Positions 45,440 to 57,051 of a stretch of 57,051 nt of DNA are shown here, in pieces. Numbering within the stretch: the stretch's first letter is position 1; each line of letters opens with the position of its first letter. Origin of the DNA: an uncultured Candidatus Bathyarchaeia archaeon. GTDB lineage: Archaea; Thermoproteota; Bathyarchaeia; 40CM-2-53-6; DTGE01. Below the pieces are notes generated by a model. The model made no database searches. It worked only from the letters and a program-made list of their open reading frames with translations, and was not told the DNA's origin. Location: positions 1-57,051 of the forward strand of contig CAYFVN010000234.1 of the NCBI GenBank assembly GCA_964346575.1. The letters run 5' to 3'. The translations under genes were made by a program, and so were the position numbers.

Positions 45440-46591
45440 TCATCTGATTAACCCTTCAAGTTTTGAGTTGTATTCAACTATTTTTTCTTCGCAGACTTTG
45501 ACATCTTCATCCTTCTTCTTCTTTGTTTTTATAGCGTTGTCGAGTCCTTCTCTCTTTTTCTGTAGTTCTTTCTTAGCCCTTTCAAGCTCTGTCTTCTTTT
45601 CTATCGTTCCCAAATCTTGAAGTCTACGATCTTTCTCTACGAAATCGTTGAACTTTTCCATGTATTTCTTTATTTTATCCTCCTTCAAGATACTTGAGAT
45701 GGCTTCTATAGCCTTCCTGTTTCTTGAACTCTTTAAATTCAGCTTCCTTTCCTTCAACAACTCTCGGAGATAGACTAAAGCTTCCTCTAGGATCTTTTCA
45801 TCTACAATGTTTAATAGCATATCTCTGGGGTCGTCGATAAACCTTCCAAGTTGTATAGCCTTTTGCAGATCGTAATCGACTGATCCACGTTCAGCCAACT
45901 TAAGTGTTTTAAAGACGGGCTTCTCCAGATACCTAAGCTCTCTCTTAACTCTCTCCTCGAATGTTCTCTCGTCTTCTTTAAACTTTTCAACCTTAATTAG
46001 GTCCTCCTTCTGCCCCAGGCTTCGTATCACTTCCTCGTGTTCTTCAATCATCCTCCTCGTCTTCTTCATGTTCTTCACTGTATCATCTAGAGCATCTCTC
46101 TTAGCTGATAACTCTGCTTTAAGTTTGGATATTTTATCAACTATGTTCTCAGCTCTTTGCCATCTTTTCAGCTCGCTCTTATAATTTGAAAACATATCCT
46201 TGAGATCTTGCGTCAGATTTTGAACTCGCTTTCTATCGTCTTCAATTCTTGTAATCTTAATTTTACGCTTGAAGCCGATCCTTCTAACCCACTTAGCCCC
46301 GTAATACATGATCTCCTTTTGAAAATTGTCCAAGGCATCGATATACGTGTCAATATCTCGAAGACCAATCTTATCAGGCCTTTTAATATCTGAGGCTAAG
46401 GATCCTGCTTTACTGCCGAACTGCTCCGCAAAGTTGTCTCCGGAACCTTCAAGTTTTCCCGATTCAGAGACTATAGATTCTAGAGCTTCTTGAATTTTAT
46501 TCAAGACCTCTTCGAATCCGTTTTCGACATCAGCAAAACTACGCTGTACCCTCTTATTTAGATCATGAACTTCATCTTTATCAGACTGCAA
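45440..46591 (-). CDS. hypothetical long coiled-coil protein
   Basis: 383 aa, extremely K/E/R/D-rich with heptad-like character. No NTPase or other catalytic motif is visible. Lies in the low-GC island. Confidence 0.5.
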   Translation of the reverse strand: MQSDKDEVHDLNKRVQRSFADVENGFEEVLNKIQEALESIVSESGKLEGSGDNFAEQFGSKAGSLASDIKRPDKIGLRDIDTYIDALDNFQKEIMYYGAKWVRRIGFKRKIKITRIEDDRKRVQNLTQDLKDMFSNYKSELKRWQRAENIVDKISKLKAELSAKRDALDDTVKNMKKTRRMIEEHEEVIRSLGQKEDLIKVEKFKEDERTFEERVKRELRYLEKPVFKTLKLAERGSVDYDLQKAIQLGRFIDDPRDMLLNIVDEKILEEALVYLRELLKERKLNLKSSRNRKAIEAISSILKEDKIKKYMEKFNDFVEKDRRLQDLGTIEKKTELERAKKELQKKREGLDNAIKTKKKKDEDVKVCEEKIVEYNSKLEGLIR

Positions 46592-46721: not shown

Positions 46722-47267
46722 ATGAGTGGTGAAGGCATGGATTCAATACCTCGCGCAGGTACTATTGTTTATGATTTAATCTATGGTGATGATGAACAAG
46801 AAAAGATTGCCATCAGAAAATTTCAGCTTTTAAATTCCTATATTTTAGTCCCCCTCTATCGTATTGGTCTCTTGCCCATAATGGGTTTTAGCAGAATATT
46901 TTTACTTCTTGAGACTGTTGGACGGAAAACTGGTTTCAAACGTGTTACCCCTTTAGAGTATCACAGGATTGATGGTGTAATTCACATTATTTCGGCCAGA
47001 GGAAAGAGATCGGATTGGTTTAAAAATTTACAAAAAAATCCCGATATGGTTTCAGTTAAACTTGGATTTCACAGTTTTAGTCCCCGAATAGAAATCATAG
47101 ATGATCCGAAGGAAAAATTGAAAGTTCTAAAATGGTACGTGACAACTCATCCAACTTTGGCCAAGCACTTAATCGGCTGGGATAGCAGAACAGACGATGC
47201 AGAATCAGGTTTATTAAGTCCTCTAGTCAAATTATTCCAGATCATCAGATTATACGAAGCAAAATAA
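46722..47267 (+). CDS. nitroreductase-family deazaflavin-dependent oxidoreductase-like protein (DUF385)
   Basis: RIFLLLETVGRKTGFKRVTPLEYHRIDGVIHIISARGKRSDWFKNLQKNPDMVSVKLG matches the DUF385/Ddn-like core (llLtT.GRkSG..R.tPl.y......vvaS.gG...Wy.NL.anP.v.v). Confidence 0.6.
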   Translation: MSGEGMDSIPRAGTIVYDLIYGDDEQEKIAIRKFQLLNSYILVPLYRIGLLPIMGFSRIFLLLETVGRKTGFKRVTPLEYHRIDGVIHIISARGKRSDWFKNLQKNPDMVSVKLGFHSFSPRIEIIDDPKEKLKVLKWYVTTHPTLAKHLIGWDSRTDDAESGLLSPLVKLFQIIRLYEAK

Positions 47268-47449: not shown

Positions 47450-49231
47450 ATGGTTAAGTGGAAATGCACCGTTTGTAGCTACATCTACGATGAAGAGAAA
47501 GAAGGCATAAGATTCAGAGATCTTAGTCCCAGTTGGGTGTGCCCGGTTTGTGGAGCCCCTAAGTCGGCTTTCAATAGAATTGGTAGGAGGATAGAGGAAG
47601 AGAAGGCTGTCGCTGTCCCAACCGTGGCTGATAAAATAATTGAACAATTGTCGGCGATCGGCGTAAAATACGTCTACGGAATACCGGGCGATTCTAATCT
47701 ACCCTTCGTAGAGGCTTTGAGCAAACAAAACAAGATCAAATTCGTATTAACAAGGCATGAAGAGACGGCTGCCTTCATGGCGTCGGCCCACGCGAAACTA
47801 ACCGGTGAGATCGGAGTCTGTCTTTCCATTGCAGGCCCTGGAGCCACCAACTTGGTTACAGGGTTGATGGACGCCGCAACAGATGGAGCGCCGGTTCTAG
47901 CTTTGACTGGGCAGGTTCCCCAAGTTTTTTTGGGAAGCGAGTCCCTACAAGAGATCGACCAGATCGAACTGTTCGAACCATTCACGGTTTTCACTGAAAC
48001 AATCGCAATGCCTGGCCAAGCGATCAATCTGACCATGTTGGCCGTGAAGAATGCATACCTCAAACGGGGAGTGGCACTGTTAAGCCTGCCCACAGATGTT
48101 CTATCCGAAGAGCTGGAGGATGAGATTTGGAGACCGGAGGAGCATCTTTTCAAACAAATCGTGACGCCTACGGATGTATACATAGAGGAGGCAGCCGAGC
48201 TCATTGACAAGAGTAGTAGACCGATCATTCTGGGTGGTTGGGGGATAAGAGACTGTGGTAAAGAGGTTATTGAACTTGCGGAAAGGATATCTGCGCCAAT
48301 TGCGACCACCTCCAGGGCTAAAGGCGTCATACCGGAAACTCATGACTTGGCTGTAGGAGTTTTGGGATCCATAGGCACCCGTTTCGCAGCCAAGGCGATG
48401 ACCAAGGCGGACCTCGTCATCGTTGTGGGGTCAGGGTTTAGGCAGAGAAATCTCGTACCAAACTTGCCGATAGTTCAGATAGACATTGACGGTGTGAAGC
48501 TTGGGAAAAGTTTTCCGATAAAGGTTGGTCTAATAGGTGACGCAAAGTCGGCTTTGGAAAAGCTGATCAAGAAGGTGTCCGCGAAGAAACAGGATAAACA
48601 GTATTTTGATGAGATCAGGAAGATTAAAGACGCGCATCTCAAAGAAATAAGAGAAGACTCCGAAAACATGTCCGTTCCTATACACCCGGGGTACGTTATT
48701 CAAGCCATAAAAAGGCACGCCGAAAAGAACGCCGTCATCTGCGTCGATGTTGGGGACCATACGTACTGGTTCCATAAAAAATACATATGCGACGGCGAAG
48801 AAACCCTCATGTCAGCCAACATGGCGAGCATGGCATTCGGTTTACCCGCCTCCCTCGCAGCCCAGATAGACTTCCCAAACAGGCAGATAATATGCGTCAC
48901 GGGAGATGGGGGATTCGGCATGCTCATGGCCGACTTCACCACGGCCGTCTACAACAGGCTACCCGTAAAGATCGTGCTATTCAACGACGGTAAACTGAAG
49001 AACATAGAGAAGGAACAGATGATGTATGGGTTTAAAGAGTTTGGAACGGAATTCGTGAACCCGAACTTTGCAGAGTTTGCAAAGTCCTGCGGTGGAGAAG
49101 GCTATCGCGTAGAGAAACCAGAGGAATTGGATAATGCCTTGAAAAAAGCTTTAGAACCGGGTAAGCCAGCTATAGTTGACGTTGTTGTAGACCCTGAGAA
49201 GACATCTCCAATAGTTAAGACGGCTCCTTAA
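47450..49231 (+). CDS. thiamine-diphosphate enzyme (pyruvate oxidase / acetolactate synthase-like) with an N-terminal rubredoxin-like domain
   Basis: N-terminus WKCTVCSYIYDEEKEG...WVCPVCGAPKSAF (two CxxC knuckles). It is followed by the POX/ALS three-domain body (GIPGDSNLPF, GPGATNLVTG) and the ThDP motif GDGGFGMLMADFTTAVYNRLPVKIVLFNDG. Confidence 0.85.
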   Translation: MVKWKCTVCSYIYDEEKEGIRFRDLSPSWVCPVCGAPKSAFNRIGRRIEEEKAVAVPTVADKIIEQLSAIGVKYVYGIPGDSNLPFVEALSKQNKIKFVLTRHEETAAFMASAHAKLTGEIGVCLSIAGPGATNLVTGLMDAATDGAPVLALTGQVPQVFLGSESLQEIDQIELFEPFTVFTETIAMPGQAINLTMLAVKNAYLKRGVALLSLPTDVLSEELEDEIWRPEEHLFKQIVTPTDVYIEEAAELIDKSSRPIILGGWGIRDCGKEVIELAERISAPIATTSRAKGVIPETHDLAVGVLGSIGTRFAAKAMTKADLVIVVGSGFRQRNLVPNLPIVQIDIDGVKLGKSFPIKVGLIGDAKSALEKLIKKVSAKKQDKQYFDEIRKIKDAHLKEIREDSENMSVPIHPGYVIQAIKRHAEKNAVICVDVGDHTYWFHKKYICDGEETLMSANMASMAFGLPASLAAQIDFPNRQIICVTGDGGFGMLMADFTTAVYNRLPVKIVLFNDGKLKNIEKEQMMYGFKEFGTEFVNPNFAEFAKSCGGEGYRVEKPEELDNALKKALEPGKPAIVDVVVDPEKTSPIVKTAP

Positions 49232-49296: not shown

Positions 49297-50607
49297 GTGA
49301 CTAACTATAGGGGTTGTGGTGTATACTTGAAAAGTAGAACCGTGGAGGTTGCTATCCCATACGGCGAAGACAGCTTAACGATCGAGTTGCCTAAGGATAA
49401 TCTAGTATTCGATGTGGATATGGCCTCCCCTTCTCCTCTTCCGAATGTACGTGAAGAGGTTCTCCGTTCCCTACGTAATCCTATAGGGATGGAACCGTTG
49501 GATAGCGTCGTAGGCAGGGATGATAAAGCGATAATTATGGTAGACGATTTGACGAGGCCGACTCCCCAGGACCAACTGGTTCCACTAGTGCTCAAGGAGC
49601 TTAACCGAATCGGCATACCGGATTCAAATTTAAAGATTGTGATAGGTCTGGGCACTCACCGTTTCATGACTGAAGAAGAGATAGAGGTCAGGTTTGGAGC
49701 AGGAGTGGTAGATAGAGTCGAGATCGAGAATCATCCGTTCAACGAGCCAGAGGTCCTCGAGTATCTCGGTGAAACACCCTCTGGCGTCCCAGTCCATATC
49801 AACAAGGAGATACGTAAAGCAGACTTCTCGATAGCGGTTGGGAACATTGTGCCACACCTCTACGCAGGATGGGCTGGGGGCGGCAAGATGATTCAGCCCG
49901 GGGTATCCGGTGAAGAGACCACCGGTATGACCCATCTAAACGCGGGTAAGTATAAGCCCTTCGGAGAGCTGCTGGGAAACCTAGATCAAGAGATGAGACG
50001 GGAGATCGATCAAGTCGCATTGAAAGCCGGGTTAAACTTCATCCTCAACACCGTATTAAACAAGGATAGGGGAGTGGTGTATGTAACTGCCGGGGATCCA
50101 TTGAAGGCTCATCGCCGAGGCGTCGAGGTTGCGAAGAAAATCTATATTAGATCGATACCCGAATTGGCTGACATAGTCATAGTGTCAAGCCATCCAGCCG
50201 ACATAGACTACTGGCAGGCCCTTAAGGGTGTAGCCTCAGCGCGCAGAGCGGTCAAAGAAGGAGGAAGAATAATCCTCGTCACACCCTGTCCAGAGCGTAT
50301 ATCTCCCATCCACAGTATAGTTGGAGATTTCGGAACGGCCGAATACCCAAAGTTGGTTGAAATGGACGAAAAAAGACACGTCGACGATATGGTCGGCCTC
50401 GGAACCCTTTTCGCTCACTCCCAGCTCAAGGAGAACGTTCAGATCCTCTGCCTGTCTCACGGCCTAACGCAGAGGGATAAAGATTCGCTGGGATTCACCC
50501 AAATATCCTCGATGGAAGAAGGGTTGGAGGAGGCCCTTCGAGATCGTGGCCGAGACGCTACTATAGGAGTGTTAAGAGGAAGCGAGGTGATGGTCGTACC
50601 ACAGTAA
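49297..50607 (+). CDS. LarA-like nickel-pincer (NPN) dependent 2-hydroxyacid racemase/epimerase family protein (DUF2088)
   Basis: VDDLTRPTP, IGLGTHRFMTEEE and NIVPHLYAGWAGGGKMIQPGV (His and the cofactor-tethering Lys context of LarA). The likely true start is TTG 49327 (MKSRTVEVAIPYG). Confidence 0.8.
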   Translation: MTNYRGCGVYLKSRTVEVAIPYGEDSLTIELPKDNLVFDVDMASPSPLPNVREEVLRSLRNPIGMEPLDSVVGRDDKAIIMVDDLTRPTPQDQLVPLVLKELNRIGIPDSNLKIVIGLGTHRFMTEEEIEVRFGAGVVDRVEIENHPFNEPEVLEYLGETPSGVPVHINKEIRKADFSIAVGNIVPHLYAGWAGGGKMIQPGVSGEETTGMTHLNAGKYKPFGELLGNLDQEMRREIDQVALKAGLNFILNTVLNKDRGVVYVTAGDPLKAHRRGVEVAKKIYIRSIPELADIVIVSSHPADIDYWQALKGVASARRAVKEGGRIILVTPCPERISPIHSIVGDFGTAEYPKLVEMDEKRHVDDMVGLGTLFAHSQLKENVQILCLSHGLTQRDKDSLGFTQISSMEEGLEEALRDRGRDATIGVLRGSEVMVVPQ

Positions 50608-50674
50608 ATCCTTATCCCCCTAGGTGCATATCCTTATATATACATCACATGTACATCCATAGCTGTGGAAAATC

Positions 50675-52180
50675 ATGTCTTCTGAAAAAACTAATAGAAG
50701 AGGATATGTAAAGACAGCTGCTGCTGGTATTGTAGGCGTTGCGATAGGAGCCGCTGCAGGCTACTCCGCTCCGAAAAAAGGACCAGTTATAACCCAAACT
50801 GAGACAGCCTTCCAGACCGTAACTAAGACGGCTGCCCCAACGCCGGTGCCGACTCCAAAGCCAACCCCTACAGGTCCACTCGCTGATTACTTAATTGCTG
50901 ACATTGATTGGCGTCAATTCGAGGGCAAAGAAATAAACATACTCTTATCGACGCATACCTTCTTCAAGACGTTAAACGCTAGAACTGATGAGTTCACTGA
51001 ATTGACGGGGGTAAAGGTAAATTTTGAGCATCTACCGCCTCGTCAATTACGTGAGAAGACGCTTTTAGACTTCGAAGCTGGAACCGGTCTCTACGACGTA
51101 CACGCTATGGATGAGAGTTCTATACCGTTATACATCGCCAATGAATGGATTGAAGATATAAACAAGTTCATAGATGACTCAAAGCTGACGGATAAAGAAT
51201 GGATAGATACCGACGATTTCCAGAAGCCTCACTGGAACATGGATCATGAAAAAGGGAAGCTGGGCGCGCTTCCTTTCAGCGGAATGGTAGGCATTCTCTA
51301 CTACCGGAAAGACCTATTCGAAAAGGAAGGACTCTCTCCGCCAAAAACATTCGATGAGGTATTAGAAGCCGCCGATAAGTTGCACGACCCACCGAACGTT
51401 TATGGAGCTGAAACACGTGGAATGAAAGGACAAGGACAGAACGCATGGATCATGGGGGGCATCCTACAGTCCTATAACTCACATAACGGTGCGGATAACT
51501 GGCCAAGTTGGTTCGACAAAGAATGGAACATATACATCAACACAAAGGAATCGTTTGATGCCCTAAAGATGTACACCGACATGGTGTCCTATGCTCCCCC
51601 TGGTGTAGAGACTTGGAACTGGCCTGAGTGCGTCGCTGCTTTCCAACAAGGAAAAGTCGCCATGTATTATGATGTGTCGGAGCACGCGTATCTGATCGAA
51701 AAACCTGATGAATCACTAGTATCCGGTAAAGTCGGATACACGTTGGCGCCTTTGGGCGGCGTACCCGAGAGGTGGGCAGGCATCTTCAACTGGGCCATGG
51801 GAATGAACAACTCATCAAAACAGAAGGAAGCTACCTGGCTTTGGCTTCAGTGGGCTACATCAGCGCCAAACATGAAGAGAATGCTGACAGAGCATCCCTT
51901 CACCTATGCTTCACCGACGAGGTTAAGCGTTCTAACATCACCCGAATACATGAAGGACTACAATTTCGGAGAAGGAGCATTCGTCAAAACCCTGGATGAA
52001 ATGTACAAGATACCATACCTATGGAAGTTTAGGCCGAGAATACCTGAAGGAAAAGAGATCCAAGAGCTCTATGCGATAGCCATCCAAGACGCTCTAGTGA
52101 AAGGAGACCATCAGAAGCAACTGGACATCTGCTACGATGAAGTAAAAAAGGTCATGACTAAAGCAGGTTACTACGGCTAA
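50675..52180 (+). CDS. ABC transporter solute-binding protein (family 1, sugar type), membrane-anchored
   Basis: N-terminal TM (AAAGIVGVAIGAAAGY), then a Thr/Pro-rich linker (TAAPTPVPTPKPTPTGP) typical of archaeal SBPs. A family-1 SBP body follows (GKVAMYYD, NWAMGMN). Confidence 0.85.
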   Translation: MSSEKTNRRGYVKTAAAGIVGVAIGAAAGYSAPKKGPVITQTETAFQTVTKTAAPTPVPTPKPTPTGPLADYLIADIDWRQFEGKEINILLSTHTFFKTLNARTDEFTELTGVKVNFEHLPPRQLREKTLLDFEAGTGLYDVHAMDESSIPLYIANEWIEDINKFIDDSKLTDKEWIDTDDFQKPHWNMDHEKGKLGALPFSGMVGILYYRKDLFEKEGLSPPKTFDEVLEAADKLHDPPNVYGAETRGMKGQGQNAWIMGGILQSYNSHNGADNWPSWFDKEWNIYINTKESFDALKMYTDMVSYAPPGVETWNWPECVAAFQQGKVAMYYDVSEHAYLIEKPDESLVSGKVGYTLAPLGGVPERWAGIFNWAMGMNNSSKQKEATWLWLQWATSAPNMKRMLTEHPFTYASPTRLSVLTSPEYMKDYNFGEGAFVKTLDEMYKIPYLWKFRPRIPEGKEIQELYAIAIQDALVKGDHQKQLDICYDEVKKVMTKAGYYG

Positions 52181-52253
52181 AAAGTTACTAATCAAAACTC
52201 CTCTTTTTTATTATTATTTTGCGATTAAACAACTCTGATATATGTCCCCTATT

Positions 52254-53390
52254 TCAAATATCAATTCTCATCGAAGCTACAGTAGCGTCATCGATTTCCA
52301 CTCCCTGACCGGGTGTGGGTAGTATAGTTGCTTTAGATGAAGACATATTGAATCCTCCTTTTACAGGTTGCTGCTTGAACCAGAGGTGGCTGTCCACAGA
52401 GCAAGGAAATACGTCTCTCGCATTGACAGCCACATGACACGTAGCTGTATCGATCATTTTGCTATTAGGTGTACAGTCAAATCTCACGCCCAATCCCGCG
52501 GCTTCAGCGATCGTCATGACCTTAATTGCCTTATATATCCCGCCGACGCGTGTAAGCTTTATATTCACCATATCAGCGGCTTCAAGGCGAGCGATCATCA
52601 AAACACTCTCAGGAGAAAGTACACTCTCATCGGCTATTATCGGTAAGTCTAGGTTCCTCGTGGCTTTAGCCAATCCATTCAGGTTATGAAAGTGAAACGG
52701 TTGTTCGACCAGTAGGTTCGGGAAACCTTCAAAAGGACGCAAGAAACCTATGAGGGCTTTCACGCTACGGAAGGCCTGGTTGAAGTCTACTATTACCGGG
52801 ATGCTATCGTCCACAACTTCCAGAACTTTTTTCAGCTCTTCAGCCTCATTCTTAAGAATCTCTCGCCTAGGTCCATCGATATCATGTAACCTTGGGTCAC
52901 ACTTAACCTCAACTGATCTATAACCTTTGGCGATCTGATCTTTTACGACAGTATTTCTGGAATGCTGATAGAATATATGAGCAAGCAGGTCAACATCGGT
53001 CCTATAACCACCGCCAAGAAACTCGTAAACAGGATTATTAGTGGCTTTTCCCATTATGTCGTACAAAGCCAAGTCGATGGCTGTATTGGCGGCTTTGCGC
53101 GACATATTCCTTGATAAACGATCCATTTTCTCGTGAATATCCGCTATCTTAAACGGATCCTCACCCTTCAGGGCCTCCCAGTACTTGGATAATCCCGTTA
53201 AAATATGCGCGTTCGTTTCACCGAACCTAAAATTGGCTACGCCCTCTCCTATACCGGATATTCCATTATCCGTTTGAAGTTTCACTATAACCGAGTCCAT
53301 AGTTGGATATGGATTACCTGGCAAGACCGACTCAAAGCGGATTGTAGCCGTCTCCATTTTAGCCAGCTTCAAGGTTAATACACCATTCAA
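52254..53390 (-). CDS. enolase-superfamily enzyme (mandelate racemase / muconate lactonizing enzyme family; possible sugar-acid dehydratase or epimerase)
   Basis: Metal-ligand blocks VIVDFNQAF, LVEQPF and IIADES. There is a conserved Lys in VNIKLTRVGG, and the usual KxK region reads VEVKCD. Confidence 0.85.
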   Translation of the reverse strand: MNGVLTLKLAKMETATIRFESVLPGNPYPTMDSVIVKLQTDNGISGIGEGVANFRFGETNAHILTGLSKYWEALKGEDPFKIADIHEKMDRLSRNMSRKAANTAIDLALYDIMGKATNNPVYEFLGGGYRTDVDLLAHIFYQHSRNTVVKDQIAKGYRSVEVKCDPRLHDIDGPRREILKNEAEELKKVLEVVDDSIPVIVDFNQAFRSVKALIGFLRPFEGFPNLLVEQPFHFHNLNGLAKATRNLDLPIIADESVLSPESVLMIARLEAADMVNIKLTRVGGIYKAIKVMTIAEAAGLGVRFDCTPNSKMIDTATCHVAVNARDVFPCSVDSHLWFKQQPVKGGFNMSSSKATILPTPGQGVEIDDATVASMRIDI

Positions 53391-53597
53391 GAGTTATCTG
53401 TTGTGTTGGTTTTTTAAAGTTGCGAGAGAATAAAGTTAGATCTAGTAACTTAATGGCTTCCAAATCTTCCAGTGATCCACATCTTCTAGGGTGATCTATT
53501 AGCCAGTTGATGGTCCAGCTCAAAGGTGATTGGAATCATCTCTTAAGGAAATCTTAATTCAAAATGTTTATATTAATTCTCAAATAGTGAGACCTTT

Positions 53598-54692
53598 ATG
53601 TCTGTTAAAGCTACAGTCTACGTTGGACCTAATCTTCCTTTTGAGATTCGAGAGCTTCCATTTCCCGTTGTCGAGTCGAATGCGATTTTGTTAAAAGTTA
53701 GGATGGCGTGTGTCTGTGGATCGGATTTGCACCTATGGCAGGGAAGGAGGCCGGAGCTGACACCGCCGAGGATTCTAGGCCATGAAGCCATGGGTGAGAT
53801 CTACGAGATGGGAGAGAATGTACAAGCTGATTCGCTTGGAAATTCTGTAAGCGTTGGTGATCGCGTGGTCTACGAGTACATTCTCTTCTGTGGTAGATGC
53901 TACTACTGCCTGATGAAGAGGGAGCCTACACTATGCCTCAACTGGAGGGGATTAGGTACCATGAGCTGTGACGACCCTCCTTTTTTGAACGGTGGTTTTG
54001 CACAGTATGTATATCTTAGACCTGGCCACGCATTTTTCAAAGTACCTGATGAACTGTCCGACGAGGTTGTTGCGCCAATAAACTGTGCACTTTCAAGTAT
54101 GATCAACGGCCTTGAGAAGGTAGGTCTTGAGCTTGGAGATAAGGTGGTAATACAGGGTGCTGGCGCGTTAGGTCTCTACGCCATCGCGTTGGCTAGGGAG
54201 ATGGGTGCAACTTCAGTAATCGTTATTGATGGCTTGAAGGAAAGATTGAGGATGGCGGAGGAGTTCGGCGCGGACTATACACTCGACCTCTCTGAGTTTG
54301 AATCCACTGATTCACGTGTGGAGGAGATAATGAATTTAACCGGAGGATTCGGCGCGGACCTATGTATCGAGGTAGCCGGTACACCCGAAGCGGTTCCAGA
54401 AGGGCTACAGATGCTTCGTAGGGGAGGACGATACTTGGAGATGGGGACAATATTCAAAGGAGCCTTCACCTCTATCGATATCTCTTGGCTCATCATGAGA
54501 GCTCTGAGAATTGTAGGTGCTAGGAACTACGAACCTAGACATCTAGCGAAAGCTCTAGATTTTCTCATGAAAAACAGGAGTAAATACCCATTTAAGAAGT
54601 TGATCACGAAAAAATATGCACTGGCAGAGATAAACGAGGCGTTCAAGACAGCCTTGAAACGCACCGAGCTGAGAGTGGCGGTCACGCCTTAG
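53598..54692 (+). CDS. zinc-dependent medium-chain dehydrogenase/reductase (MDR)
   Basis: Catalytic Zn CVCGSDLH...GHEAMGEI, structural Zn CGRCYYCLMKREPTLC, and Rossmann motif VIQGAGALG. Confidence 0.85.
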   Translation: MSVKATVYVGPNLPFEIRELPFPVVESNAILLKVRMACVCGSDLHLWQGRRPELTPPRILGHEAMGEIYEMGENVQADSLGNSVSVGDRVVYEYILFCGRCYYCLMKREPTLCLNWRGLGTMSCDDPPFLNGGFAQYVYLRPGHAFFKVPDELSDEVVAPINCALSSMINGLEKVGLELGDKVVIQGAGALGLYAIALAREMGATSVIVIDGLKERLRMAEEFGADYTLDLSEFESTDSRVEEIMNLTGGFGADLCIEVAGTPEAVPEGLQMLRRGGRYLEMGTIFKGAFTSIDISWLIMRALRIVGARNYEPRHLAKALDFLMKNRSKYPFKKLITKKYALAEINEAFKTALKRTELRVAVTP

Positions 54693-54833
54693 TTTAGTTT
54701 ACATTTGATCATCATGAAAACGTAGAAAGTTGATGTTAAACTCCGATCTCTGCCAGCATCTATAGAAGGCGCAGCGTAAATTCTAAACACTTATTAAGAT
54801 ATATTCCTTTTTACCGCTAAGTGTGATGAAAAA

Positions 54834-55994
54834 ATGCCGGGTGGACCTATCTCCGTTGAGTCGAAGTACTTGCCAGAGAGCGAGTTCAAAAAGAGGGAAG
54901 AAAATATTAGGAGAATAATGGTTGAACGAGGTCTGGATGCCCTCTTCATATACGGGGACGAGTATCGATACGGCGACTACGTGTACATAGCAAACTATAA
55001 AGGCCTCAATATAGTCGAGGAAGCCCCATACTACATATTCTTCCCGTTAGAGGGAGACTCCATTATGTTCACAGGGCGATTCAACATACAGCCGGCAACG
55101 AAGCATTCTCGCATCGAGGATGTGAGATGCTTATGGGATCTAGAACAGCATATCAAGGACATTGCACGATTAAATCTGAAAAAAATCGGTGCTGTTGGAG
55201 TAGATATTACTCCATATCCAACATACGAAACAACCGCGAAAGGATTGCCAAATGTAAAGATGGAAGAGGCGAACGAAATCATACAGCAACTACGTTTGAG
55301 AAAGAGTGATAACGAGGTCAAGTTGATGAGAAAAGCGGGAGAAGTAGCCGATGCGGGCATGAGGGCTGGACGCGAAGTCTTGGTAGAAGGAAACACGGAA
55401 TGGGAGGTACTCGCCAGAGCTGAGGATGCATGTAGGCGTTTGGGAGGCGACAATCCATTCTCGAACATGATGGGTTCCGGAGAGTCTCTAACTGACCGAG
55501 TGTTTCTTGCGAGCGACAATAAGTTAAGGGAGGGAGTATTAGCGTGCGTAGGTCTCCACCCAAACTTCCGATACTACTGCAACGATACAGAGAGAACCTG
55601 GCCGATAGGTAAGGTTTCCGATGAGCAGTTAAATGCTTTAAAGGCTGCCAATAGGATAATGGAGGAAGAGATAGATTATATCGCCCCGGGAAGAACTTGG
55701 CTTGAGCTCGTCGAGCATTACCGTGAGTTGATTGATCGTGAAGGGTACCTTAAATACTGGGCAAGCTACGAGGAGGAGGTTCGCGGCCACGCTCTAGGCC
55801 ATGGGATAGGACTGGATATGGTCGAATGGCCACGCCGTTATCCACGTGACTGGAATATTAAGATGGAACCCAACATGACTGTGGCCATCAAATCAGAGAT
55901 GCACGGGTTCAGCTGGGGCGGAATTAGGCAAGAGTCAGTCGTGCTGGTGACGAAGAGCGGATCAGAAGCATTGAACAAAGTCGAATATATCTAG
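54834..55994 (+). CDS. M24 family metallohydrolase (Xaa-Pro peptidase / creatinase-like)
   Basis: Creatinase-type N-domain (RRIMVERGLDALFIYGDE), then a pita-bread domain with HALGHGIGLDMVEWP and a late E...E pattern. Confidence 0.8.
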   Translation: MPGGPISVESKYLPESEFKKREENIRRIMVERGLDALFIYGDEYRYGDYVYIANYKGLNIVEEAPYYIFFPLEGDSIMFTGRFNIQPATKHSRIEDVRCLWDLEQHIKDIARLNLKKIGAVGVDITPYPTYETTAKGLPNVKMEEANEIIQQLRLRKSDNEVKLMRKAGEVADAGMRAGREVLVEGNTEWEVLARAEDACRRLGGDNPFSNMMGSGESLTDRVFLASDNKLREGVLACVGLHPNFRYYCNDTERTWPIGKVSDEQLNALKAANRIMEEEIDYIAPGRTWLELVEHYRELIDREGYLKYWASYEEEVRGHALGHGIGLDMVEWPRRYPRDWNIKMEPNMTVAIKSEMHGFSWGGIRQESVVLVTKSGSEALNKVEYI

Positions 55995-56055
55995 AAAAAC
56001 AAATATCCAACATTTATTATTTTATTATAGGAATGTTCTATAGAGTTCAATAGAA

Positions 56056-56928
56056 ATGAAAACAAAATACACGATAATTCTACTCTTACTACCCTACGTA
56101 AGCGCAATGTGCATTATTATGGGCTATCCAATGCTCGAAGTATTTCGACTATCTTTCTTCTCGTATAAACTAACAACCGGAACTTCAAGTTGGACGGGCT
56201 TAAGTAACTATATGGCAATGTTTGACGATTATAGATTTTGGAATTCGGCGTACCTCGTACTTTACCTAGTCATATCCACGGTAACTTTGCAAGTCCTGTT
56301 TGGTCTTGGAATTGCAATGTTATTTAGTGGAGCTGTCACGCGTGCGGGCTCTTTCAGAGGACAGAGAGTATTACGGTCACTTGCTATACTTCCAATGGTT
56401 ACGACACCAGTAATCGTTGGGATTATATGGAGAAACTTCATGTTTGAACCTATGTGGGGGATGGCCAACTACTTTATAGGATTAGTTGGGATCAAACCCA
56501 TTCACTGGATTCACAGCTATGAATTAGCCATGCCTTCCTACATAATCGTACATACATGGCAGTGGACTCCCTTCGCGTTCCTAATATTGTTCGCCGGTCT
56601 ACAAGCGTTGCCTAAAGAGCCATTTGAAGCGGCACAGATAGATGGAGCGGGTAGATGGCATACGTTCAGACACCTGACGTTGCCACTAATGAAACCAGTT
56701 ATAATGCTCACAATAATCCTTCGGACGATAGAGGCGATGAAGGCATTTCCATCATTGTACTCGCTTACCGAAGGAGGGCCCGGCATCGCTACTGAAACTC
56801 TTAACTTATACATCTACTACGTTGCGTTCACATCATATGATCTAGGATACGCATCTGCCCTCGGGGTCGTATTTACAGTAATAATTGCGTTTTCAACTTA
56901 TTTGCTTTTAAAGGTAGGTGCAAGATGA
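56056..56928 (+). CDS. ABC transporter permease (MalF/UgpA-like, sugar type)
   Basis: Six TMs with the EAA loop PFEAAQIDGAGRWHTFRHLTLPLMKP. Confidence 0.9.
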   Translation: MKTKYTIILLLLPYVSAMCIIMGYPMLEVFRLSFFSYKLTTGTSSWTGLSNYMAMFDDYRFWNSAYLVLYLVISTVTLQVLFGLGIAMLFSGAVTRAGSFRGQRVLRSLAILPMVTTPVIVGIIWRNFMFEPMWGMANYFIGLVGIKPIHWIHSYELAMPSYIIVHTWQWTPFAFLILFAGLQALPKEPFEAAQIDGAGRWHTFRHLTLPLMKPVIMLTIILRTIEAMKAFPSLYSLTEGGPGIATETLNLYIYYVAFTSYDLGYASALGVVFTVIIAFSTYLLLKVGAR

Positions 56929-57051
56929 CTTTGAGGTTCTCGAAACTTAACTTGGCGGGTGTAACAATAGTCATGACGTTATTTCTCGCCTATAGCCTTT
57001 TCCCGGTTTTCTGGACTTTCTTAACCTCTTTCAAAGAGCCTCTGGACACTT
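56925..57051 (+). CDS. ABC transporter permease 2 (MalG/UgpE-like), 5' fragment running off the window
   Basis: ATG at 56925 overlaps the previous stop (ATGA). It translates to MTLRFSKLNLAGVTIVMTLFLAYSLFPVFWTFLTSFKEPLDT, the typical N-terminus of the second sugar permease. Confidence 0.7.
   Translation, partial: MTLRFSKLNLAGVTIVMTLFLAYSLFPVFWTFLTSFKEPLDT

Follow-up and report, generated by a model that had tools for sequence, protein, structure and literature searches.

A rubredoxin domain fused to a pyruvate oxidase-type thiamine diphosphate enzyme in an uncultured Bathyarchaeia archaeon

The gene and its N-terminal rubredoxin domain

The DNA analysed here (the window) is a stretch of 57,051 nucleotides, contig CAYFVN010000234.1 of assembly GCA_964346575.1, from an uncultured Candidatus Bathyarchaeia archaeon. 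At positions 47450-49231 of its + strand lies a gene for a protein of 593 amino acids (aa), which was characterised with the list of open reading frames, its Pfam architecture, sequence matches to the PDB, an AlphaFold2 model and Foldseek. Pfam placed a rubredoxin domain (Rd) at residues 3-41, followed by a poorly conserved linker and a three-domain thiamine diphosphate (ThDP) enzyme, confirming the fusion of a rubredoxin-type four-cysteine motif to a ThDP enzyme that a preliminary description of this locus had proposed. We refer to it as the Rd-ThDP gene.

The ATG at 47450 was the earliest start codon past the upstream stop, with only 10 more open codons on its 5' side, and it sits upstream of the cysteine motif, which answers the objection that translation might begin downstream of it. 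The same N-terminus, M-x-K-W/F-R/K-C-T-V-C, was common to more than 110 homologue clusters (90% identity clusters) at 57-85% identity. When the codons were compared with those of three relatives at 74-86% identity, the ratios of synonymous to non-synonymous changes were 11:4, 14:9 and 20:10 in the rubredoxin and 3:7, 3:8 and 1:12 in the linker. Because synonymous changes prevailed in the rubredoxin codons and the reverse was found in the linker, the rubredoxin motif is translated and under purifying selection.

The rubredoxin domain (47456-47572, +) was assigned from the PF00301 model, which scored 32.8 bits (E 7.4e-8) against a curated gathering threshold of 23 bits and 35.5 bits in a scan of the genome, and from its invariant cysteines. 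The four cysteines (C6, C9, C31 and C34) form two knuckles, CxxC and CPxCG, and were conserved in 78/78 aligned homologues. Among solved structures, residues 1-44 alone matched best the rubredoxin of P. abyssi (1yk5, E 1.9e-14) and then those of P. furiosus and clostridia, the short 45-aa rubredoxins 6rxn and 6nw0 being also among the matches. The alignment to 1yk5 ran from end to end through both knuckles, with the aromatic and hydrophobic core matched (W4, Y11, Y13, F22, W29 and F41) and with one 8-aa gap in the inter-knuckle loop, which coincides with the region that is also shorter in the natural 45-aa protein 6rxn. The family's domain thus shares with free rubredoxins (P. abyssi 1yk5, P. 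furiosus 1brf, C. pasteurianum and the short 6rxn) both knuckles, the aromatic core and the C-terminal KxxF, and differs from them in the 8-residue deletion and in its covalent fusion to an enzyme. Two distant fused lineages (P0125 and P0218) have a rubredoxin loop of full length. Identity to the free rubredoxin encoded by the source genome was 44%. Since the domain passed the Pfam cut-off and aligned to iron rubredoxins, aromatic core included, with only an 8-aa loop deletion, the cysteine motif is best read as a true rubredoxin, presumably with bound iron, and the possibility of a generic zinc ribbon was ruled against.

Conservation of the domain was as high as that of the catalytic part: mean column identity among the 78 homologues was 0.77 in the rubredoxin, 0.69-0.76 in the three catalytic domains and 0.31 in the linker. 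This Glu/Thr/Lys/Gly-rich linker, predicted to be flexible (residues 42-57; 47573-47620, +), was delimited by its low column identity and low AlphaFold2 confidence, and its length was 13-21 aa across the homologues. The AlphaFold2 model, a monomer built from the 78-sequence alignment, had a predicted local distance difference test score (pLDDT) of 89 and a predicted template modelling (TM) score of 0.88; in it the rubredoxin was folded (block means of pLDDT 78-88) and residues 46-53 had pLDDT below 50, so that the model depicts a structured rubredoxin on what would be a flexible tether.

The ThDP enzyme part and its relatives

The enzyme part begins with the Pyr (N-terminal ThDP) domain at 47621-47971 (+; TPP_enzyme_N, PF02776, residues 58-174, E 2.5e-38), continues with a central FAD-type domain at 48182-48565 (+; TPP_enzyme_M, PF00205, residues 245-372, E 6e-36) and ends with the PP (C-terminal ThDP) domain at 48746-49183 (+; TPP_enzyme_C, PF02775, residues 433-578, E 4.5e-37). 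The catalytic glutamate Glu104 (Glu50 of PoxB) and the GDGG...ND Mg-ThDP motif of the PP domain (G485-D486-G487-G488...N512-D513) were invariant in the family, and the PP domain also bore a family signature, K517-N518-I519-x-K521-E522. The invariants of the central domain were R289-x-K291, G306, G309, F330-R331 and D345. Among these, G306, F330 and D345 align to G252, F276 and D292 of PoxB, which we take to be FAD contacts, and the R-x-K segment is kept; Oxc, a paralogue that does not bind FAD, has a gap at the G-x-x-G segment. At the level of motifs the FAD-binding residues of the middle domain thus seem to be retained, and FAD may occupy the site.

None of the NCBIfam equivalog cut-offs was reached by the protein. 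The best model was that of pyruvate oxidase PRK08611 (NF006377; 501.9 bits against a cut-off of 742), and another pyruvate oxidase model, TIGR02720, gave 355.9 bits against 637.85. The models for PoxB and pyruvate dehydrogenase gave about 406-408 bits (NF006591, 405.9 against 792), above those for acetolactate synthase (ALS), whose large subunit model TIGR00118 gave 371 bits against 538. The best sequence match among solved structures was E. coli PoxB (E 8e-95; query residues 58-585 to PoxB 4-532). Foldseek ranked first the tail-less, proteolytically activated form of PoxB (delta-23; TM score 0.93-0.94 on the target), second the truncated pyruvate:quinone oxidoreductase (PQO) of C. glutamicum (0.91) and third lactobacillar pyruvate oxidase (POX; 0.83, with 0.82-0.84 for the POX of L. 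plantarum and Aerococcus).

With PoxB and PQO (31-36% identity) the family shares the three-domain ThDP/FAD fold, the catalytic Glu, GDG..N, the putative FAD-site motifs, R-x-K and the equivalent of PoxB E469. PoxB and PQO (the latter formerly named 'pyruvate dehydrogenase (cytochrome)') have a C-terminal amphipathic lipid-binding segment, which in PoxB presumably spans about residues 531-572, gates activity and gives access to quinone. The Rd-ThDP protein stops 8 aa past the residue aligned to PoxB 532 and so has no such tail, carrying its tethered rubredoxin at the opposite end. The tail was absent from the whole fused clade and from its sister clade described below, and it was present in P0127 and P0128 of the PoxB clade.

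The POX-branch residues R289-x-K291 and E522 (PoxB E469) were kept, while ALS has M-x-L and Trp/Gln at these places. The G464-F465 pair of PoxB is replaced by the invariant K517-N518, and R331, K521 and H437 are further family-specific invariants, so the active site seems to be POX-like in plan and no copy of that of PoxB. It differs as well from L. plantarum POX at both active-site Phe positions (Phe121 and Phe479), where the family has L166 and N518. ALS belongs to the same superfamily, has an FAD-binding middle domain and is about 30% identical, but its specificity Trp is Glu in the family, its M-G-L is R-A-K, and no gene for a small regulatory subunit adjoins the Rd-ThDP gene.

A maximum-likelihood tree was built from the ThDP part only, with the rubredoxin removed. 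The core fused family formed a fully supported clade (support 100) of 26 fused rows and two Methanoperedens sequences without rubredoxin. Its sister clade contained both distant fused lineages and enzymes without a fused rubredoxin, the latter from Odin-, Hermod- and Halobacteriota; at the loci of these unfused enzymes (L074, L077 and L080) no separate rubredoxin gene was found beside them. Core and sister clades together were sister to the PoxB clade, and both ALS and glyoxylate carboligase (Gcl) fell outside the POX-branch clade (support 98). Bacterial sequences were nested among archaeal ones. The tree and the residues above place the enzyme, as far as sequence comparison can tell, in the POX/PoxB branch and not with ALS. 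The earlier proposal of a full three-domain ThDP enzyme of POX or ALS type was thus borne out, on the POX side, by the Pfam domains, the fold match to PoxB and the tree.

The two Methanoperedens sequences of the core clade have lost the rubredoxin secondarily. A clean in-frame loss was seen in five Methanoperedens proteins (P0086, P0087, P0092, P0097 and P0100), each a natural delta-Rd enzyme, the junction reading MAKF|EKIG where sisters of more than 90% similarity read MAKF-RCTVC...SAF-EEIG. Other relatives in the library of representatives (P0122, P0140, P0143, P0151 and others) were of double length, about 1080-1170 aa, with two ThDP-enzyme modules per chain.

These comparisons bear on the possibility that the rubredoxin-like domain has a structural or regulatory role (as a zinc site, or a sensor of redox state or iron) in an enzyme that is a non-oxidative carboligase or lyase, its FAD vestigial as in ALS or glyoxylate carboligase. 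The metal identity is unreadable from sequence, Phe465 of PoxB is not conserved, the Methanoperedens copies just described do without the rubredoxin, and members of this enzyme superfamily commonly bind FAD that plays no part in redox chemistry (PMC5298238). On the other hand, this canonical rubredoxin matches the catalytic core in conservation, the tree groups the enzyme with PoxB and not ALS, Glu stands at the position of the ALS specificity Trp just as it does in PoxB, and the neighbours described below are redox proteins, several of them fused to rubredoxin themselves. We regard this possibility as rather improbable.

Hosts, neighbours and the proposed electron path

A scan of one genome per species gave 80 loci. 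The archaeal hosts were Bathyarchaeia, Hod-, Heimdall-, Prometh(Loki)- and Thorarchaeota, Methanoperedens, ANME-2 and Thermoplasmata, with four cultured hosts (Methanococcoides sp. FTZ1, Methanolobus sp. ZRKC3, Methanohalophilus euhalobius and Methanohalophilus sp. RSK); the bacterial ones were Aminicenantes, Clostridia/Bacillota, Actinomycetes, Eisen-, Coates- and Stahlbacteria and Dehalococcoidales. Almost all are anaerobic lineages, and a few metagenome-assembled genomes (MAGs) were labelled Nitrososphaerales or Nitrosopumilales. A library clustered at 50% identity contained a single representative of the core family and five distant fused representatives at 34-42% identity. The gene was found in 0/40 nearest relatives of the source genome (1/41 counting its own) and in 8/301 genomes of the phylum, the other seven carrying a distant fused lineage at 42-45% identity. 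The fusion therefore defines a large, widespread but patchy family that is not special to the source genome. The GC content of the gene was 0.487, and both GC and GC at third codon positions (GC3) were akin to those of the adjoining housekeeping genes; no signature of recent horizontal transfer was found in composition and no tRNA lay close by in the window, so that the patchy phylogeny is the sole sign of mobility.

The orthologue of Methanohalophilus sp. RSK (L032:8001-9779) contained one in-frame TAG, at codon 386, in a poorly conserved interdomain segment where relatives carry E or D. The family of Methanohalophilus uses pyrrolysine, and the codon could reflect read-through, a pseudogene or a sequencing error.

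Database names for the family were generic ('thiamine pyrophosphate-binding protein', 'pyruvate oxidase', 'pyruvate dehydrogenase', 'rubredoxin'), and a full-text literature search on the fusion of rubredoxin to a pyruvate-oxidase-type enzyme found no description of it. The architecture itself, a POX/PoxB-branch enzyme with a putative built-in rubredoxin outlet, is visible in domain databases.

No neighbouring gene was universal, the most frequent cluster being present in 15/80 loci. The recurring neighbours were electron-transfer proteins that varied by lineage. A membrane-anchored c-type cytochrome was encoded near the gene in Aminicenantes and allies, and a CDGSH plus 4Fe-4S protein lay directly upstream in Methanococcoides, Thermoplasmatales and Methanosarcinaceae. 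SdhA/SdhB-like flavoprotein and Fe-S subunits with a class II fumarase were adjacent in about 12-15 of the 80 loci, some of them overlapping the start codon of the gene. A glutamate-synthase-type FMN protein (PF01645) with an N-terminal rubredoxin followed directly downstream in Methanosarcinaceae and Actinomycetes MAGs (L069:9780-11264, L021:9980-11467, L047:2563-4071 and L048:3010-4518); it is a second uncharacterised rubredoxin-fused flavoenzyme and possibly a redox partner. Other recurrent neighbours were a rubredoxin-fused protein like ferredoxin:thioredoxin reductase (FTR), an FNR-like flavoprotein and, in 6 loci, subunits of 2-oxoacid:ferredoxin oxidoreductase. At least one electron-transfer neighbour lay within 3 kb in 37/75 usable loci; such genes made up 16% of the open reading frames within 3 kb and 3.7% of those at 3-8 kb (Fisher p 2e-9), an enrichment that rests on clusters picked post hoc and on phylogenetically related loci.

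In Coatesbacteria-like bacteria and one Bathyarchaeia MAG (L060:4849-9755, L056, L064 and L014:2582-9767) the Rd-ThDP gene closed an operon with the SdhA/SdhB-like genes, the stop of sdhB overlapping its start. These operons also held a membrane cytochrome c, or a fumarase, a nitroreductase and an FNR-like protein.

The source genome, 67% complete, encodes one free canonical rubredoxin of 53 aa. A profile scan placed it in an operon, directly behind the genes for superoxide reductase (SOR; Desulfoferrodoxin family) and a flavodiiron protein (C156:1726-3607), and rubrerythrin and PFOR-type enzymes are encoded as well. Since these rubredoxin-dependent scavengers of O2 and reactive oxygen species (ROS) are present in the same genome, SOR, the flavodiiron protein and rubrerythrin would be natural acceptors and are the obvious candidates for the fused rubredoxin.

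Taken with moderate confidence, the reading that we favour is that the protein is a soluble flavo-ThDP 2-oxoacid dehydrogenase of the POX/PoxB branch, in which electrons would pass from ThDP to FAD and on to the tethered rubredoxin, with pyruvate as the likeliest substrate. By homology to PoxB and POX, ThDP would decarboxylate the 2-oxo acid and the hydroxyethyl-ThDP would hand two electrons to FAD, as in those enzymes, the product being probably acetate or acetyl phosphate. The architecture suggests that FAD would then be re-oxidised in one-electron steps by the Fe(Cys)4 rubredoxin on its N-terminal tether of about 16 residues. The rubredoxin would take the place of the membrane tail and quinone of PoxB and of the O2 of lactobacillar POX, and its Fe(Cys)4 centre would swing out to reduce partners specific to each lineage. 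The preliminary description had proposed a built-in carrier for an oxidative decarboxylase independent of O2 and quinone; the POX/PoxB placement, the FAD motifs and the missing tail fit that proposal, and its chemistry stays a prediction. The POX of L. plantarum and Aerococcus is phosphate- and O2-dependent and forms acetyl phosphate and H2O2; O2 is an unlikely acceptor in the hosts of the Rd-ThDP gene. Most hosts of the family are strict anaerobes, which sets it apart from PoxB and PQO too.

Rubredoxin as a built-in port has precedents. NorV flavorubredoxin, rubrerythrin, the hydroxylamine reductase 7e0l and the methanogen FTR-like proteins all carry a one-electron Fe(Cys)4 module in this role, and they differ from the present family in that here the fusion partner is a predicted ThDP/FAD oxidative decarboxylase. 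The solved 506-aa 'hydroxylamine reductase' (PDB 7e0l/7wsx) has a rubredoxin at its N-terminus, matched by residues 3-44 of our query, and is a structural precedent for fusion at that end. Rubredoxin fusions in rubrerythrin, flavorubredoxin and hydroxylamine reductase are electron inlets, which raises the alternative of inward flow, the rubredoxin reducing or re-activating the flavin (redox activation, repair) or supporting a reductive reaction. By established thermodynamics, however, the oxidative decarboxylation of pyruvate by a carrier near 0 V releases so much free energy that rubredoxin could not feasibly drive its reversal, and this branch of enzymes has no known reductive reaction; we hold inward flow to be very improbable.

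The same architecture and electron path could also serve another 2-oxo acid (2-oxoglutarate, or a dicarboxylic or polar one), with some lineages feeding a fumarate reductase or a reductive FMN enzyme and not O2/ROS detoxification. This is suggested by the invariant polar or basic residues K517, N518, K521, R331 and H437, the first two standing where PoxB has its hydrophobic G-F, and by the neighbourhoods with SdhA/SdhB-like proteins and class II fumarase, with 2-oxoacid:ferredoxin oxidoreductase and with the rubredoxin-fused FMN protein. However, the characterised close relatives PoxB, PQO and POX all use pyruvate, the neighbourhoods vary by lineage and none of them occurs in this window, and we consider a different substrate unlikely overall, though less so than the alternatives already discussed.

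Several points weigh against the outward path from pyruvate to rubredoxin. The family has no characterised member and no partner gene conserved across all loci, and the neighbour enrichment carries the selection effects given with it. The position of PoxB Phe465, which we take to be involved in electron transfer from ThDP to FAD, is an invariant Asn preceded by an invariant Lys, and given the differences from the PoxB active site the substrate may be other than pyruvate. ALS and Gcl bind FAD without a redox role, so that FAD motifs are no proof of redox chemistry. Finally, because some Methanoperedens copies have cleanly lost the rubredoxin, it is dispensable in at least one lineage.

The known acceptors in the pyruvate oxidase lineage are O2 in lactic acid bacteria and membrane quinone for PoxB and PQO. 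That a conserved, tail-less version bearing a rubredoxin is found in strict anaerobes of both domains suggests another physiological acceptor and a connection, missing so far, from central carbon metabolism to the rubredoxin pool, whose reductant is poorly defined in archaea, notably for the oxidative-stress enzymes. We put forward only tentatively that the family might add a third class of electron outlet to the pyruvate oxidase lineage, as a pyruvate:rubredoxin oxidoreductase independent of CoA, ferredoxin, quinone and O2 that feeds the rubredoxin networks of anaerobes. If so, the networks fed would be those of SOR, flavodiiron protein and rubrerythrin for removal of O2 and ROS, and the sinks in other lineages would be soluble or membrane fumarate reductases, c-type cytochromes and rubredoxin-fused reductive flavoenzymes. 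With PFOR, which is oxygen-sensitive, out of action, Asgard archaea, Bathyarchaeia, ANME and methylotrophic methanogens would then have an oxygen-tolerant way to draw reducing power from pyruvate. Because electrons run steeply and irreversibly downhill from pyruvate to a carrier near 0 V, an overflow or protective role such as PoxB has would suit the enzyme. Reconstructions from MAGs of Asgard archaea, Bathyarchaeia and Methanoperedens label such genes 'pyruvate oxidase' or 'poxB', implying a use of O2 or quinone that the sequence does not support. The hypothesis is directly testable, because cultured strains of Methanococcoides, Methanolobus and Methanohalophilus carry the gene.

The LarA-like gene and the rest of the window

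A LarA-like gene (49297-50607, +; Lar_N and LarA_C in Pfam) follows the Rd-ThDP gene in the same direction after a gap of 65 nt. Its product scored below every NCBIfam cut-off for LarA homologues, the best being malate racemase LarAH6 with 308 bits against 500, and LarC was not found in the source genome, at its 67% completeness. The preliminary description had seen the two genes as a co-directional pair; the arrangement is real, but the pairing is not conserved, since in none of the 80 related loci, those of relatives at 82-86% identity included, was a LarA homologue found closer than 8 kb to the Rd-ThDP gene. The LarA-like cluster was a singleton among the neighbours of these loci, and the loci of the best LarA homologues in relatives shared no other gene of the window. 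LarA-like genes occurred in 22/41 related genomes and the Rd-ThDP gene in 1/41. A conserved operon of the two genes was rejected on the empty loci and the differing phyletic patterns, and the pair is a local juxtaposition.

The same data bear on the idea of a two-gene pathway in which racemisation of a 2-hydroxyacid would feed the oxidation of a 2-oxoacid. The short gap, the shared direction and the similarity of the LarA-like protein to malate and lactate racemases above all others would suit it. Against it stand the absence of LarA from the related loci and the phyletic patterns, and between the two genes there is no dehydrogenase that would convert the hydroxy acid to the oxo acid; such a pathway is hardly plausible.

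Just upstream of the Rd-ThDP gene, at 46722-47267 (+), lies a gene for a 181-aa protein of the F420H2-dependent quinone reductase family (PF04075), a mainly actinobacterial family. Its GC content (0.37) and GC3 (0.31) were markedly below those of its neighbours (about 0.48). Farther upstream, 45440-46591 (-) encodes a Lys/Glu-rich protein of 383 aa, probably a coiled coil, with no significant Pfam family. On the other side, the LarA-like gene is the first of an island (49297-57051) for the catabolism of sugars or sugar acids, with genes for a sugar-type solute-binding protein, an enolase-superfamily enzyme encoded on the other strand, a glucose-dehydrogenase-like Zn-MDR protein, an M24 hydrolase and an ABC permease.

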